Shown: positions 7,059 to 57,310 of the stretch, in pieces | Layout: every line of letters begins with the position of its first letter | Position numbering within the stretch: the first letter of the stretch is position 1 | NCBI GenBank assembly: GCA_965112155.1 | Contig: OZ218109.1 | Source: Podarcis liolepis | Lineage: Eukaryota | Direction: 5' to 3' (one strand) | DNA: 64,000 nt | Notes under the pieces: generated by a model | What the model was told of the DNA's origin: nothing | The model's database searches: none | Seen by the model: only the letters and a program-made list of their open reading frames with translations | Made by a program: the position numbers and the translations under genes

Positions 7059-7194
7059 CAGGCACCCTCAAACTCTGCCCTCCAGATGTTTTGGGACTAC
7101 AACTCCCATCATGCCTAGCTAACAGGACCAGTGGTCAGGGATGATGGGAGTTGTAGTCCCAAAACATCTGGAGGGCTGAGTTTGAGGCTGCCTG
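7059..7194. mobile_element. Palindromic hAT-like MITE
   Basis: Near-perfect ~60-bp arms CAGGCACC...GGACTACAACTCCCATC / GATGGGAGTTGTAGTCC...GCCTG; close copy at 56121. Confidence 0.85.
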
Positions 7195-10966: not shown

Positions 10967-11090
10967 TCTCTTAGCTGTTGTGTTCCATTTCAAAAATGTA
11001 TGTTCAGCTTGTAAGTTGGCTTCTGCCTTGCAGCTCTCCTCATACTTCCTCTATAAAGTACTCTTGGTCCATAGTCAAGTCTGAAGAACT

Positions 11091-11858
11091 CCCTGGTCCT
11101 GAATGGGGTAATTGTGTCCCTGAAAGACCAGGTGCGCAGCCTGGGAGTCATTGTGGACTCACAGCTGTCCATGGAGGCGCAGGTCAATTCTGTGTCCAGG
11201 GCAGCTGTCTTCCAGCTCCATCTGGGACGCAGGCTGAGACCCTACCTGCCCCCAGACTGTCTTGCCAGAGTGGCACATGTTCTAGTTAACTCCGACTTGG
11301 ACTACTGTAATGCGCTCAACATGAGGCTACCTTTGAAGGTGACCCGGAAACTACAACTAATCCAGAATGCGGCAGCTAGACTGGTGACTGGGAGTGGCTG
11401 CTGAGACCACATAACACCGGTCCTGAAAGACCTACATTGGCTCCCAGTACGTTTCTGAGCACAATTCAGAGTGGTGGTGCTGACCCTTAAAGCCCTAAAT
11501 GGCCTCAGCCCAGTATACCTGAAGGAGTATCTCCACCCCCATCATTCAGCCTGGACACTGAGGTCCAGCTCTGAGGGCCTTCTGGGGGTTCCCTCACTGC
11601 GAGAAGCAAAGCTACAGGAAACCAGGCAGAGAGTCTTCTCGGTAGTGGCGCCCGCCTGTGTGGAACGCCCTCCCATCAGATGTCAAGGATATAAACAACT
11701 ATCTGACTTTTAGAAGACATCTGAAGGCATCCCTGTTTAGTGAAGTTTTTAACGTTTGATGTTTTATTGTATTTTTAATACTTTGTTGGAAGCCGCCCAG
11801 AGTGGCTGGGGAAACCCAGCCAGATGGGCTGGGTATAAATCAATGATTTTGATGATGA
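11091..11858 (+). mobile_element. L2 LINE 3' fragment
   Basis: Translates to SLGVIVDSQLSMEAQV...LDYCNAL...LQLIQNAAARLV, typical of L2 ORF2; has stops and a 3' UTR ending GGGTATAAAT. Confidence 0.88.
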
Positions 11859-12986: not shown

Positions 12987-13148
<162 letters not shown>

Positions 13149-13397: not shown

Positions 13398-14290
13398 AAT
13401 AATAATAATAAGAAGAAATAATTTATTTATTATTTATACCCCGCCCATCTGGCTGGGTTTCCCCAGCCAATCTGAGTGGCTCCCAACAGAATATTTAAAA
13501 CATAATCAAACATCAAACATTAAAAACTTCCCTAAACAGGGCTGCCTTCAGATGTCTGACATTTGTCAGATAGTTTATTTCCTTGATATCTGATGGGAGG
13601 GTGTTCCACAGGGCGGGCGCCACTACCAAGAAGGCCCTCTGCCTGGTTCCTTGTAACCTACTTCTTGCAGGGAGGGAACCGCTAGAAGGCCCTTCGAGCT
13701 GGACCTCAATATCCGAGTGGAGATGCTTCTTCAGGTATACAGGACCGAGGCCGTTTAGGGCTTTAAAGGTCAGCACCATCACTTTGAATTGTCCTCGGAA
13801 ACGTACTGAGAGCCAATGCAGATCTCTCAGAACCGGTGTTATATAGTCTCAGTGGCCACTCCCAGACACCAGTCTAGCTGCCGCATTCTGGATTAGTTGT
13901 AGTTTCCGGGTCACCTTCAAAGGTAGCCCCACGTAAAGCGCATTGCAGTAGTCCAAGCGGGAGATAACCAGAGCATGCACCACTCTGGCAAGACAGTCTG
14001 CAGGCAGGTAGGGTCTCAGCCCGTGTACCAGATGGAGCTGGTAAACAGCTGCCCTGGACACAGAATTGACCTGCGCCTCCATGGACAGCTGTGAGTCCAC
14101 AGTGACTTCCAGGCTGCACACCTGGTCCTTCAGGGGCACAGTTGCCCCATTCAGGACCCGGGAGTCCCACCCACCCCGTCCCCCCAAAACAGTACTGTCT
14201 TGTCAGGATTAAACCTGAATCTGTTAGCCGCCATCCATCCTCCAACCGCCTCCATACACTCACACAGGACCATTGTACCCTTCGCCTGCC
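13398..14290 (-). mobile_element. L2 LINE 3' fragment
   Basis: ORF 13849-14187 VPLKDQV...SRLDYCNALYVGLPLKVTRKLQLIQNAAARLV; same family as 11091, opposite orientation. Confidence 0.88.
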
Positions 14291-18768: not shown

Positions 18769-19415
18769 CTGATCCCATCACCTCCTGGCAAATAGAAGAG
18801 GAAGAAATGGAGGCAGTGAGAGATTTTACTTTCTTGGGCTCCATGATCACTGCAGATGGTGACAGCAGTCACGAAATTAAAAGATGCCTGCTTCTTGGGA
18901 GAAAAGCAATGACAAACCTAGACAGCATCTTAAAAAGCAGAGACATCACCTTGCCAACAAAGGTCCGTATAGTTAAAGCTATGGTTTTCCCAGTAGTGAT
19001 GTATGGAAGTGAGAGCTGGACCATAAAGAAGGCTGATCGCCGAAGAATTGATGCTTTTGAATTATGGTGCTGGAGGAGACTCTTGAGAGTCCCATGGACT
19101 GCAAGAAGATCAAACCTATGCATTCTGAAGGAAATCAGCCCTGAGTGCTCACTGGAAGGACAGATCCTGAAGCTGAGGCTCCAATACTTTGGCCACCTCA
19201 TGAGAAGAGAAGACTCCCTGGAAAAGACCCTGATGTTGTGAAAGATGGAGGGCACAAGGAGAAGGGGACGACAGAGGACGAGATGGTTGGACAGTATTCT
19301 CGAAGCTACCAGCATGAGTTTGACCAAACTGTGGAAGGCAGTGGAAGACAGGAGTGCCTGGCGTGCTCTGGTCCATGGGGTCACGAAGAGTCGGACACGA
19401 CTAAACAACAACAAC
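18769..19415 (+). mobile_element. Bov-B (RTE) LINE, 5'-truncated
   Basis: LDSILKSRDITLPTKVRIVKAMVFPVVMYGSESWTIKK...VHGVTKSRTRLN with one stop; (CAA)n tail; 10-bp TSD ATTTGTGTGA at 18759-18768 and 19416-19425. Confidence 0.95.
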
Positions 19416-20738
19416 ATTTGTGTGATGTCTAAGCCTCAGTCTGAGTCCACACACAAGTTTTTCTGCAGGAGCCAAGTGTTCCTTTTGTGGGCAGACGCTT
19501 TGCTACCCAGCCTTCCAATTTCTGTACTTTGTCATCCCTATGTAGAGTAGCTGCTTCAGAAACAAGAGCACAAATTAAGTCATGTATCCTGCTCTCGAGT
19601 CCCCAGAGGAAGAATGTGGTAAAATGTGACAGATAAAATGAAAAGTGCGCTTGAAATGTCTAATGAGAAATTCTCCCGTGGACATTGACATTTGTGGCAA
19701 AAGGTTACCAATTTCTGTTCTTTAATCAGGCAACTGTCTGCAGGAGGCACGTGGTGCATAGGTGCACTGTAAATTACATGGTTGTTCTTCTGCGGCCTCG
19801 GAAACCGAGGAAAGTAATGATAGATTATTGCTGTAGCAATCCCAGTGCACCTTTTAAGCCTGTGTAAATCTGATGTAATAAAGACGGTTGGCACAAGAGG
19901 GCAGCAGCTCGCCATTAATGTTGATGCTCGGCCTTATTCTTGTGACTATTCTAATTAGTTTCCAAGGAAGAATAATAGTTCTCACACTGGTGATAAAACC
20001 ATTAGACTAGTAATAGCTCTGTAAATTATACGGGGTTCAAAACATGAAACTTAATTTCACTATTTGGAGCAGAGTTCAGTAATCACTTTAGCAGAGATCC
20101 ATGCGGGCAGGGTCTGTATTTCAGTAAAGTTTGGGGATTTTTCAGTAAAGTAGGGGATAGCAGGAAACCAGAGACTTCATCAACATTTGCATGTATTGCA
20201 GTCACAAAATCATGAATTTTAGAAGCACTTATTGTAACTATTTCCCATTTATAACTTGTAATAAATACATAACCCTCCAACAATTCTCAGATGAAAATAG
20301 GGGTGTTCCATTCAGTCACCATCATTATCTATTCTGGGTAGCTTCCAACATATAATAAAACATTTTTAAAAAACGTTCCCTATACAGGGCTGCCTTCAGA
20401 TGTCTTCTAAAGCTTGTACAGTTACTTATTTCCTTGGCTCGGGGGTTACATAACTCCAAAGCGGCTAACATTTCTCCAATGAAAACAGAGGTGTCCTAAG
20501 GAAAAGTGGGACATTCCGGGATCAAATCAGAAACCAGGACGGCTTCTGTAGACCCAGGACTTTCCCTGGAAAATAAGTTGCGGTCTGGGATTTTCTCACT
20601 CTTCAGATGCTGATTGTAGACATTCTGTTACCCAGTAATTTTATATAGGTTAGAGAGCCAGGCTTTCAAAGCACATAAAAGCCAGTCACTTAATGAAGCA
20701 CTAATGCAACATGTCAAATCCAAGTTGTGTGTATTTTA

Positions 20739-22470: not shown

Positions 22471-22820
22471 TTGTTGTTGTTGTTTAGTCATGTCCGACTC
22501 TTCGTGACCCCATGGACCAGAGCATGCCAGGCACTCCTGTCTTCCACTGCCTTCCACAGTTTGGTCAAACTCATGCTGGTAGCTTCGAGAACACTGTCCA
22601 ACCATCTCGTCCTCTGTCGTCCCCTTCTCCTTGTGCCCTCCATCTTTCCCAACATCAGGGTCTTTTCCAGGGAGTCTTCTCTTCTCATGAGGTGGCCAAA
22701 GTATTGGAGCCTCAGCTTCAGGATCTGTCCTTCCAATGAGCACTCAGGGCTGATTTCCTTAAGAAAGTTTGATCTTCTTGCAGTCCATGAGACACTCAAG
22801 AGTCTCCTCCAGCACCATAT
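22471..22820 (-). mobile_element. Bov-B LINE 3' fragment
   Basis: ORF 22488-22799 KEISPECSLEGQILKLRLQYFGHLMRREDSLEK...; (TTG)n tail on the + strand. Confidence 0.95.
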
Positions 22821-23016
22821 AAATCATTTTAACTATATTCACTCACCCATGAATGTAAAATCTAAGAACTGATAGTGCTTTGTTGAGATAAACTTGGACA
22901 TATCATGGAACTTGGATTTTTTTTTAGTCCTTGGTCTTAGGACTAAAGGCTATAGCAGGACATTAAAAAGAGAATGCCTCTGTGAGCAGCAGCAACATAC
23001 ATATATATATATATAT

Positions 23017-23177
23017 ATGCAGGTTTTGGTGTCTTCGGGTGTCTTCCCGTGTAAGAGTTGGGGTGTCTAGGCGACGTTTCGACGAGGTCTCACTCGCCTA
23101 GACACCCCAACTCTTACACGGGAAGACACCCGAAGACACCAAAACCTGCATTCCTGTACCCGTGAAAATCTACGAAA

Positions 23178-23228
<51 letters not shown>

Positions 23229-23492
23229 GGTTTTGGTGTCTTCGGGTGTCTTCCCGTGTAAGAGTTGGGGTGTCTAGGCGACATTTCGACGAGGTCTCAC
23301 TCGTCATCTTCAGGCTGGTGCTTTCGGCTTCTTGTTACTGGCTCTGTTCCAGTAACAAGAAGCCGAAAGCACCAGCCTGAAGATGACGAGTGAGACCTCG
23401 TCGAAATGTCGCCTAGACACCCCAACTCTTACACGGGAAGACACCCGAAGACACCAAAACCTGCATTCCTGTACCCGTGAAAATCTACGAAA

Positions 23493-23494
<2 letters not shown>
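23017..23494. mobile_element. Penelope-like element inverted pseudo-LTR remnants (two tandem fold-back units in (TA)n)
   Basis: Unit 1 arms 23017-23074/23094-23151; unit 2 arms 23224-23341/23349-23466; each followed by the same 28-nt tail TCCTGTACCCGTGAAAATCTACGAAAGC and flanked by (TA)n; contains a hammerhead core. Confidence 0.75.
23372..23416 (+). ncRNA. Minimal type I hammerhead ribozyme motif (mirror copy on - strand at ~23274-23318)
   Basis: CTGAAGA (23377-83), T, stem II GACGAG/CTCGTC, GAAA (23403-06), TGTC; predicted cleavage after 23410. Stems I and III are minimal and activity is unproven. Confidence 0.7.
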
Positions 23495-23535
<41 letters not shown>

Positions 23536-23669
23536 CAATATGATAGTCACCATCACTGACAAACTTGGTGCTTGAGTTCTAATGAGAGAAATGCTAGAGG
23601 GCTTGTCTGGAAAATCCCAGACAGAAAGCTATTTATGGCTGGGTCATTTTTGAGTTGAAGAGGCTATAA

Positions 23670-24107
<438 letters not shown>

Positions 24108-55636: not shown

Positions 55637-56812
55637 TATGGGGCGGATCCTCTCCTGCTAACTGCCCCCAATTAAATATAGTGCAACCGTCTCGAGGTAC
55701 ACCAATTACACAAATTTCTACAGTTTACCACAGATTATCTAGTAGGGAAAACTTAAATGATTTAGAGTCTCAGGCAGGAGTTGATCAAACAAACAAGAAA
55801 TGTTTTATTAAACAAAAGGAAGTTTATGAAACCAAGTGCATAAGGAAAGGTAGAAGTTAATTAATTTACTTTAACTATTAAGATGTGTCAGGTTTAAACA
55901 GAATATTATAGATACAACTCTTCTTAAACTTCAGTTACTAGAAATCAGTTGGTACACTTCGGGTGGTTAAATATTCAGGTTTCCAGAATAGATTCCAAAA
56001 TGCTTAACTCAGTTTCTGTCACTTAGATATTACAGTTAAGTACTTTCAACACTTCCTTCACAGCTAAATACTTTGGTTCATGAGCGAGGGCACTTTTCCT
56101 CAGTTACCCACTCTCTTAATCAAGCACCCCCAAACTCGGCCCTCCAGATGTTTTTGGGACTACAACTCCCATCATCCCTAGCTAACAGGACCAGTGGTCA
56201 GGGATGATGGGAATTGTAGTCCCAAAACATCTGGAGGGCTGAGTTTGGAGGTGCCTGCTCTTAACCATCCCATACCTGAGGTCTTCTAAATGGTATAACA
56301 GACCTAGGGAATCATCCCATCTCTTGTTACTGGTTTGGGAGTTGCCTAGTTCCTAGAAGAACTCTCCCCTTCTGGCTATACTGACACCCAGGCAGCCTGA
56401 ATTCCCACAGGATCTACCTCTCCCGGCTCAAACTCAGCCCTCCCAGAACACTCCTGTCTGTATCCCTTTCCCTCAACCCAGACCCTCAACCCGGTCTCCC
56501 TATCCAAGCTACGAGGCTCTGTCCTCTCCCTATGGATAATCAACTCATTGTGTGTGTTTAACTTAACTCAGAACCAGTTCTCCGTATCTCACTCCCGATC
56601 GCCCAACCTGAAACCTGTCTAACATCTCAAATCTAATCTTATTCCTCTTCTCAAATCCAGCCCAAATCTCATCTTAAATCCAGCCCTAACTAACTCACTC
56701 TGTCAGAAAACTGCTCCTTTTATTCCTACCCCCAAAGTGCTGTTCCTTCTAGCTGACTCTGTAGCCAGAGGCTCCTGCACTCTGCTGGAATTTGGGGGGG
56801 ATTGCATCACCA
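55637..56812 (-). mobile_element. Possible solo LTR
   Basis: Compositionally distinct ~1.2-kb block; on the - strand a TATA-like AATAAAAGGAG (~56714-56724) precedes AATAAA (~55804-55809). Termini and TSD are not clear. Confidence 0.3.
56121..56257. mobile_element. Palindromic hAT-like MITE
   Basis: Same family as 7059; 8-bp TSD CTCTTAAT/CTCTTAAC. Confidence 0.88.
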
Positions 56813-56997: not shown

Positions 56998-57310
56998 CAG
57001 GTTTCCCAAAGTTGGGTCTCCAGCTGTTGTTGGACTACAACTCCCATCATCCTTAGCTAGCAGGAGCAGTGGCCAAGGATGATGGGAGCTGTAGTCCAAA
57101 AACAGTTTGGGAAACCCTGATTTAGATTATCACAGCTGGTAGACTTATCCTCCATGAAACTGTCTTAACACAAGGGTGGTGGGCAGCCTATAGCCTTCCA
57201 CATAACGTTGGACTTCAAGCACCCACCAGCCCTCGCTTGCATGACCAATGGTCAAGGATGATGGGAGTTGTAGTCCAGAAATTTCTGGAGGGCCATACAT
57301 TCCTCATTTC
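56998..57310. mobile_element. Two adjacent palindromic hAT-like MITEs (56998-57119 and ~57171-57310)
   Basis: GGACTACAACTCCCATC and GATGGGAGTTGTAGTCC arm motifs. Confidence 0.7.

Follow-up and report, generated by a model that had tools for sequence, protein, structure and literature searches.

Introduction

The closest described counterparts of the locus presented here are found among Penelope-like elements (PLEs), in particular PAc, the Poseidon element of Anolis carolinensis (Frangieh et al. 2024, PMC11167929). According to the text of that study, the open reading frame (ORF) of PAc begins at stem II of its hammerhead, with the cut 26 nt beyond the start codon; reverse transcription is initiated at +111 to +118 in the ORF, two start sites enclose the tail, and cleavage and extension occur on both strands of the target. 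Whether PLE hammerheads cut in vivo is left there as a question. Inverted truncated copies with a one-sided tail are described as typical of endonuclease-bearing PLEs (PMC8557442, PMC3846280), and the origin of these inverted insertions, together with the microsatellite preference, has been named among the open tasks of the field (PMC8557442). The same two sources tie a (TA)n bias to the linker zinc finger of Neptune, Naiad and Hydra.

Cervera and de la Pena (2014, PMC4209133) described minimal hammerheads in metazoan PLEs and reported them in turtle and snakes. They already noted that two motifs can lie 100-700 bp from each other on opposite strands, and gave the minimal motif of D. virilis a 2-bp helix I. 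For lizard Penelope elements, more than 40,000 edited sites have been reported, with an A-to-I pattern that includes depletion of upstream G (Porath et al. 2017, PMC5625713).

The present analysis concerns 64,000 nucleotides of Podarcis liolepis DNA (contig OZ218109.1 of GenBank assembly GCA_965112155.1), a stretch referred to below as the window. It very probably carries, within a (TA)n tract in an intron of UBE2E1, two adjacent and severely 5'-truncated head-to-head insertions of an abundant Penelope/Poseidon family, whose hammerhead is likely inert and is predicted to be buried.

Architecture of the Two Inverted Copies

An earlier note on this DNA had described a perfect 118-bp palindrome with a 7-nt loop and a 28-nt tail set in (TA)n, and this description holds in every detail: 23349-23466 and 23224-23341 are exact reverse complements (118/118), the loop occupies 23342-23348, the tail is present on one side only, and the flanking (TA)n tracts measure 46 nt on the left and 38 nt on the right (Table 1). 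What that account of the fold-back had overlooked is a second, shorter inverted copy at 23017-23179, directly upstream and behind a third TA tract. The sense and antisense arms of this upstream copy overlap by 3 nt, and each contains sequence absent from the other; its antisense arm is devoid of CUGAnGA and retains the family base at 23076. The outer ends of both copies, examined for a target-site duplication, all fall within (TA)n. The three TA tracts that touch the copies are the longest of the window, the other two being 10 nt.

Table 1. Features of the two inverted copies and of the nearby exon, in window positions.
Feature	Position	Strand	Remarks
(TA)n tract, left of upstream copy	23001..23018	.	
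Antisense arm, upstream copy	23017..23096	-	80 nt, reverse complement of 23387-23466 (79/80); without tail
Sense arm, upstream copy	23094..23179	+	86 nt, with tail; equals 23409-23494 (86/86)
(TA)n tract separating the two copies	23180..23225	.	
Antisense arm, main copy	23224..23341	-	118 nt, without tail; outer end at +84 from ORF start; mirror of the rare base at 23283
Mirror hammerhead core, antisense arm	23280..23313	-	
Sense part, main copy	23341..23494	+	Pseudo-LTR 3' end (including loop 23342-23348), hammerhead, ORF start, tail
Minimal type I hammerhead core	23377..23410	+	C3 23377, A9 23383, extra U 23384, stem II 23385-23402, GAAA 23403-23406, rare T 23407, predicted cut after 23410, stem I 2 bp
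First 39 codons, Penelope/Poseidon ORF	23383..23499	+	Last two codons extend into the AT tract
One-sided tail	23467..23494	+	28 nt, +85 to +112
(TA)n tract, right of main copy	23495..23532	.	
UBE2E1 exon with catalytic Cys	23709..23856	+	

The loop of the main copy is element sequence and not a spacer, because contigs and reads of the family align from 23341 and then run on further upstream. In its head-to-head truncated copies, short junction overlaps and tail on one side, the locus resembles the pseudo-LTR insertions described for PLEs. It differs from them in the extreme truncation, in the presence of two copies in one TA tract, and in a tail that, at 28 nt, is slightly shorter than the 30-40 bp quoted in PMC3846280 and PMC8557442.

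The start of the upstream sense arm can be placed in the interval 23409-23412 in main-copy numbering, which brackets the predicted hammerhead cut at 23410/23411. With four break points in about 154 nt, a rough estimate puts the chance of one falling at the cut at about 1 in 10, and the coincidence is taken as a lead only. Separately, one contig from a related species (set X1, described below) starts at 23094, the equivalent of 23409, straight after (AT)n and beside the predicted cut; together with the upstream copy, it offers a second hint of break points near this position.

Assignment to the Penelope/Poseidon Group

An ATG at 23383, overlapping core position A9, opens a frame of 39 codons, of which the first 37 lie in the sense arm and form the beginning of a PLE ORF. 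An exhaustive search of 1.84 billion proteins with the translated peptide returned two matches. The informative one, P0002, shares 25 of 39 residues (64%) with the peptide over its own residues 1-39, at E 8.8e-4; the other, P0001 (E 9.7e-5), covers 19 residues of a repeat protein and was rejected as a chance match. A word-index protein search with a 48-aa frame gave two candidates, none at E up to 1. P0002 leads to P0003 of Crotalus (65%), whose residues 1-39 are 59% identical to the window peptide. A search with P0003 in turn yielded 398 longer proteins (E up to 1e-10). Among the 120 of these matches that were listed, DKG is present in 119 and a GIY-YIG pattern in 93.

The absence of a CX2-5CxxC linker separates Penelope/Poseidon from Neptune and Nematis. 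Such a linker zinc finger, sought in the 60 residues before GIY-YIG, was found in 0 of the 93 relatives with a recognised GIY-YIG, the scan covering those 93 of the 120 listed proteins and the other 27 lying outside the GIY-YIG pattern. The locus thereby departs from Neptune, Naiad and Hydra, as portrayed in PMC8557442 and PMC3846280: it has the (TA)n flanks, yet the relatives of its family are without the linker finger. Pfam confirmed a reverse transcriptase (RT) domain in all four relatives tested and gave a sub-threshold GIY-YIG in two of the four; it assigned no PLE family to P0002 or P0003. P0021, from Podarcis, is 82% identical over 36% of the P0003 query, with RT above the Pfam cut-off and GIY-YIG (E 0.001) below it. 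P0017, from Anolis, has an N-terminus that by eye resembles the PAc template printed in PMC11167929.

Judged by sequence, the stubs are very probably 5'-truncated insertions of an ORF-bearing Penelope/Poseidon family, linked to RT and endonuclease through relatives of 59-64% identity, although a shorter non-autonomous master may also exist. This reading is adopted because the sense arm holds an ORF start and because the family extends past the loop with variable break points. The features that define Penelope are of two kinds here: the single ORF with RT (DKG) and C-terminal GIY-YIG is present indirectly, via the relatives of P0002 and P0003, and the locus itself displays the inverted 5'-truncated copy with its one-sided tail of 28 nt (in both copies) as well as a hammerhead at the junction of pseudo-LTR and ORF, whose stem II begins at the ATG. 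The Penelope-like origin proposed in the earlier note is thus upheld by the match of the ORF start to the N-termini of RT and GIY-YIG protein relatives, and its description of the unit as an ORF-less derivative is not supported, given the PLE ORF start within the unit and the family sequence upstream of 23341. Elsewhere in the window, a motif scan found no PLE RT or GIY-YIG motif; a single YVDD match was rejected, as it sits among stop codons. Exact DNA patterns gave 0 matches in metagenome contigs and 0 in viral contigs.

The likeness to PAc, as that element is presented in PMC11167929, extends to several details. In both, the beginning of the ORF coincides with the head of stem II in a minimal hammerhead, and the cut lies 28 nt from the A of the ATG here and, counted by eye, 29 nt from it in PAc. 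The insertion ends at +112, at the same peptide motif and within the PAc start range of 111-118; the tail is one-sided, the targets are AT-rich, and P0017 is found among the relatives (40% to P0003). The two nevertheless belong to different families (P0002 and P0017 are 39% identical over 146 aa). Stem I has 2 bp here and, in a by-eye reading, 3 bp in PAc; the flanks consist entirely of (TA)n, in contrast to the ATT motif preferred by PAc; and just about 150 nt of the element survive.

The Family in Related Species

Four of 24 listed sets of records were aligned to 22825-23700: DNA contigs from three organisms (X1, X2 and X4) and a raw RNA run from a fourth (X23). The unique left flank is covered at a depth of 13.2 in X1 and 18.1 in X4, and the summed contig depth at 23407 exceeds it about 3,800-fold and 1,400-fold, respectively, ratios that are not to be read as copy numbers. 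The family is very abundant in these related species, which supports a high copy number, a point that the earlier note had proposed to check. Many different loose ends in all three DNA runs mark it as interspersed, and it is young and uniform, 235 of 314 aligned X1 contigs being at least 99% alike. Family sequence extends upstream of 23341 in 4/4 runs (46 reads in X23), and tail-less family ends at +84 run into (AT)n in 4/4 runs, in agreement with the (TA)n targeting that had been proposed. A third inverted junction was seen in one X4 contig, which joins 23087 to 23343 with 3 letters fitting either side; its depth of 14.2, against 18.1 for the left flank, is about single-copy.

At the locus itself, the palindromic arrangement is confirmed in the assembly only. 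The window is a gapped assembly with two runs of N, and none of the four related-species sets contained a contig or read bridging the locus. Likewise, no locus-spanning record for the insertion was found in the three DNA runs, where the right flank had zero depth and some records were filtered.

Hammerhead Core and Predicted Folding

A scan of the whole window for a CUGAnGA / 6-bp stem II / GAAA core returned two occurrences, at 23377 on the plus strand and at 23313 on the minus strand, in keeping with the earlier claim of one core per arm; no further CUGAnGA/GAAA core with a stem of at least 4 bp is present elsewhere in the 64 kb. The bare spacing pattern, stripped of the stem, matches twice against 0.39 expected, and two matches were reached in 4 of 100 shuffles. 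The sense core has what a minimal type I hammerhead shows: the invariant core, an extra base at 9/10.1, the G10.1-C11.1 pair and stem II. With the Rfam covariance models, recommended earlier as a check, 62 matches were obtained at E up to 5, none of them to a hammerhead; all 62 were below gathering scores, most belonged to miRNA precursor models lying on the hairpin, and they were rejected as fold-driven. With Rfam silent on a hammerhead, the grounds for the ribozyme call are the motif itself and its location, which matches that of the PAc hammerhead.

With the minimal hammerheads of PMC4209133, the core shares CUGAnGA, the extra base before stem II, G10.1-C11.1, a 6-bp stem II, the lack of a loop 3 and, in the family, palindromic positions 15.2-16.2. 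It differs from them in the U-G that replaces C-G at 15.2-16.2 in this copy, and in its stem I of 2 bp, short of the roughly 4-5 bp described there. The palindromic stem III that had been proposed to act in dimers is therefore a property of the family, with C at 23407, and not of this copy, with T. The T23407C exchange, put forward earlier as a repair, does restore the family base, C being found in 104/104 X23 RNA reads and in 100, 98.7 and 99.7% of the DNA depth in X1, X2 and X4; the base of this copy accounts for at most 0, 1.3 and 0.3%, respectively. For the 4-mer duplex of stem III, the calculated energy is -1.7 kcal/mol with the family base and +2.6 kcal/mol with that of this copy. The rare T on the sense arm is mirrored at 23283, both main-copy arms sharing it, and the upstream copy carries the family base. 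At codon 9, which includes 23407, P0003 of Crotalus has Cys, as does this copy, and P0002 has Arg, a pattern that would fit recurrent CpG decay at the stem III position.

In the arm alone, stem II is predicted with a probability of 0.996. This probability drops to 0.0 for the main copy, for the two copies combined and for all three nascent lengths modelled, in support of the suggestion that the antisense arm masks the core. When the left arm was forced to remain unpaired, the upstream copy paired with the core arm instead. Stem I is predicted at 0.0005 even for the arm alone. These values assume equilibrium and leave protein out of account; the PAc hammerhead is assisted by protein. Since the 118-bp hairpin is predicted to enclose it, the hammerhead of this copy is likely inert. 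A pile-up of read ends at 23410 was sought in one fragmented RNA run (X23, a related species), a weak test, and none was seen.

A-to-G Changes in Family RNA

In X23, A>G changes appear in 138 of 839 reads of one mate orientation and in 1 of 407 of the other, and T>C changes in 123 of 356 versus 4 of 616. Among adenosines preceded by G, 3 of 16 are listed as changed, compared with 20 of 29 for the rest (p = 0.002). The core adenosines A14 and A15.1 are changed in 14 and 13, respectively, of 64 sense reads. Ten clipped X23 reads over 23378-23407 show nearly all core adenosines as G; they may stem from few molecules.

The counts use 23 of 30 listed rows. Positions 23113, 23134, 23283, 23407, 23428 and 23449 were left out as family or species differences, because the change is found on both mate orientations and in DNA. 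Position 23292 (3 of 8 reads, on the mirror arm) was left out as lying outside the scored range. No weight was given to the tail being free of listed edits, the last 17 nt of the arm being equally free of them. As X23 has zero depth on both flanks, the edited reads represent the family in another species, without matched DNA.

The changes match the ADAR signature described in PMC5625713, both in the A-to-I pattern and in the depletion of upstream G; the available text of that report, in contrast, does not tie editing to self-contained inverted insertions or to lost core adenosines. On this evidence RNA of the family forms duplexes in vivo, a conclusion that concerns the family in another species and not this locus. 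The A-to-I editing that the earlier note had named as something to look for is thus indicated for family RNA of a related species; at the locus itself the flanks have zero depth in that run. Hyper-editing would erase catalytic core adenosines of the hammerhead.

Host Gene and Other Repeats of the Window

The placement of the palindrome in a UBE2E1 intron, with the core some 300 nt before the catalytic-Cys exon, had been proposed earlier and is secure: the exon at 12999-13115 is identical to solved UBE2E1 chains at 39 of 39 residues and scores lower against E2 and E3, the element ends 214 nt upstream of the catalytic-Cys exon, and the predicted cut site lies 298 nt upstream of it. The core is sense to UBE2E1, and the antisense arm is transcribed earlier than the core. 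In the pre-mRNA, the antisense arm, being made first, would capture the core as it emerges; the arm duplex would be a substrate for ADAR and would be removed together with the intron.

Other inverted repeats were observed in the window. The pair 19063-19416 / 22472-22819 (354 bp, 95.8% identity, about 3 kb apart) lies in the same UBE2E1 intron and constitutes a second possible long RNA duplex; we take it to resemble BovB LINE sequence. Three related imperfect palindromes of about 105-137 bp, at 7059-7194, 56121-56257 and 57014-57117, are unrelated to PLEs and presumably resemble a squamate MITE. The pair 11088-11840 / 13432-14165 (753 bp, 85.7%) flanks the UBE2E1 exon near 12999-13126. Inverted repeats that flank an exon can favour its circularisation.

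Origin of the Inverted Arms

The four arms of the two copies point outward as minus-sense cDNAs, and their outer ends meet (TA)n at +84 or +112. The mechanism we favour, at roughly even chances, is two-strand priming, with one RNA or source copy serving both strands and the products then joined over 1-3 nt. The element endonuclease would nick both strands of an AT-rich target, and each free 3' end would then prime cDNA synthesis, the template for both being one element RNA or else RNAs from a single source copy. Priming at +112 would yield an arm with the tail and priming at +84 a tail-less arm; both cDNAs would stop early and be joined by microhomology of 1-3 nt. This route is favoured because it needs only activities shown for PAc and because it explains why the upstream arms each hold sequence that the other lacks. 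The correspondence of +84 with the inner start of PAc is read from the tail, the text of PMC11167929 giving that start no coordinate.

A single minus strand, either cDNA or antisense RNA, could also have folded on 1-3 nt near its 3' end and copied itself, the hairpin being trimmed at +84 by the endonuclease before it joined the target; the two steps taken jointly are possible, if somewhat doubtful. The short loops (7 and 19 nt, with overlaps of 1 and 3 nt) and the rare base common to both main-copy arms fit such self-copying at least as well as two primings, and precedents have been proposed both for self-priming on an antisense template (PMC3846280) and for endonuclease resolution of the tail (PMC8557442). 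However, the loop of the upstream copy derives from the tail-less arm, so that a target-attached cDNA could not have templated the tail and this copy would require an unattached intermediate as well as a precise cut; moreover, PAc extends both strands in vitro from internal starts (PMC11167929). Two junctions cannot decide between these mechanisms. It is unlikely that the present shape is secondary, that is, that the centre of a longer palindrome was lost by microhomology deletion and the arms were gene-converted, the upstream copy perhaps being a local duplicate. The copies are adjacent and identical except for one base (86/86 and 79/80), and microhomology-mediated deletions are described for Penelope copies (PMC3846280), but the upstream copy has the family base where both main-copy arms have the rare one, and in so young and uniform a family independent insertions would be equally similar.

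A discrete non-autonomous and ORF-less palindromic family, MITE- or retrozyme-like and mobilised by PLE proteins, would account for the high family coverage across this short unit, and non-autonomous PLE derivatives do exist (bioRxiv 10.64898/2026.07.22.740005; PMC8557442). We consider it improbable, as the unit carries an ORF start, three different junctions are known (two here and the X4 contig joining 23087 to 23343), and sequence continues past 23341 in 4/4 runs. The non-LTR retrozymes of the bioRxiv report are likewise short PLE-derived units with a type I hammerhead, yet they are described as head-to-tail tandems with complete hammerheads in consecutive units; the units here are inverted and hold one complete sense core, which places them outside the retrozyme definition. 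An assembly or fold-back read artefact is very improbable. A gapped assembly, the lack of an independent record spanning the locus and the possibility that polishing produced perfect arm identity at the rare base speak for it; the outer flanks, however, are unique and do not mirror each other, the asymmetry of the arms corresponds exactly to the tail, the two copies have different junctions, an inverted junction occurs in a contig of another organism, and family RNA is edited on both orientations. Least probable of all, to the point of being barely credible, is the idea that the intron contains a working ribozyme or RNA switch by which UBE2E1 pre-mRNA is cut or regulated, although the sense core retains all invariant positions about 300 nt from the 3' splice site and domesticated intronic hammerheads exist in RECK, CTCL and DTNB of amniotes (PMC6155905). 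Those are also type I hammerheads within introns, but they are described as conserved across classes and endowed with tertiary contacts, whereas here a young repeat copy bears a minimal core masked by its own antisense arm. The core is predicted to be fully paired, stem I has 2 bp and stem III is weakened, a second sense core is absent from the 64 kb, and the one RNA run shows no accumulation of read ends at 23410. Minimal hammerheads, moreover, are reported to be without activity as monomers and of low activity as dimers (PMC4209133), and the PAc hammerhead requires protein (PMC11167929). The potential self-cleavage of UBE2E1 pre-mRNA raised in the earlier note is unlikely for the same set of features: the rare T, the 2-bp stem I, the single sense core and the antisense arm that is made first.

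Conclusion and Outlook

The palindrome in the UBE2E1 intron is real, had been correctly assigned to PLEs, and is probably inert. Nothing suggests an effect on UBE2E1, and the locus as such matters little, being one of probably thousands of stubs. The family, on the other hand, offers a useful system in which to study how the inversions arise, whether the hammerheads cut in vivo and how TA repeats are targeted: it is young and abundant, and its short junctions are fully readable, which makes a genome-wide test possible. The pattern of changes points to self-contained hairpins as a source of the heavy editing already known for Penelope RNA in lizards.

A broader reading, which we offer tentatively and hold to be rather unlikely as a whole, is that the stubs are footprints of two-strand priming by a dimeric Poseidon-type RNP at two internal starts, that the upstream sense arm may come from ribozyme-cleaved RNA, and that (TA)n is targeted without a linker zinc finger. 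No argument for 'twin priming' or two-strand priming in PLEs was found in the literature searched, subscription papers being mostly outside it. If this reading were true, two-strand priming would account for head-to-head inverted insertions with a tail on one side, which have long lacked an explanation, and the start of the upstream sense arm would be a genomic trace of hammerhead cleavage in vivo. Thousands of young copies would then make priming, the cleavage trace and TA targeting computationally testable.
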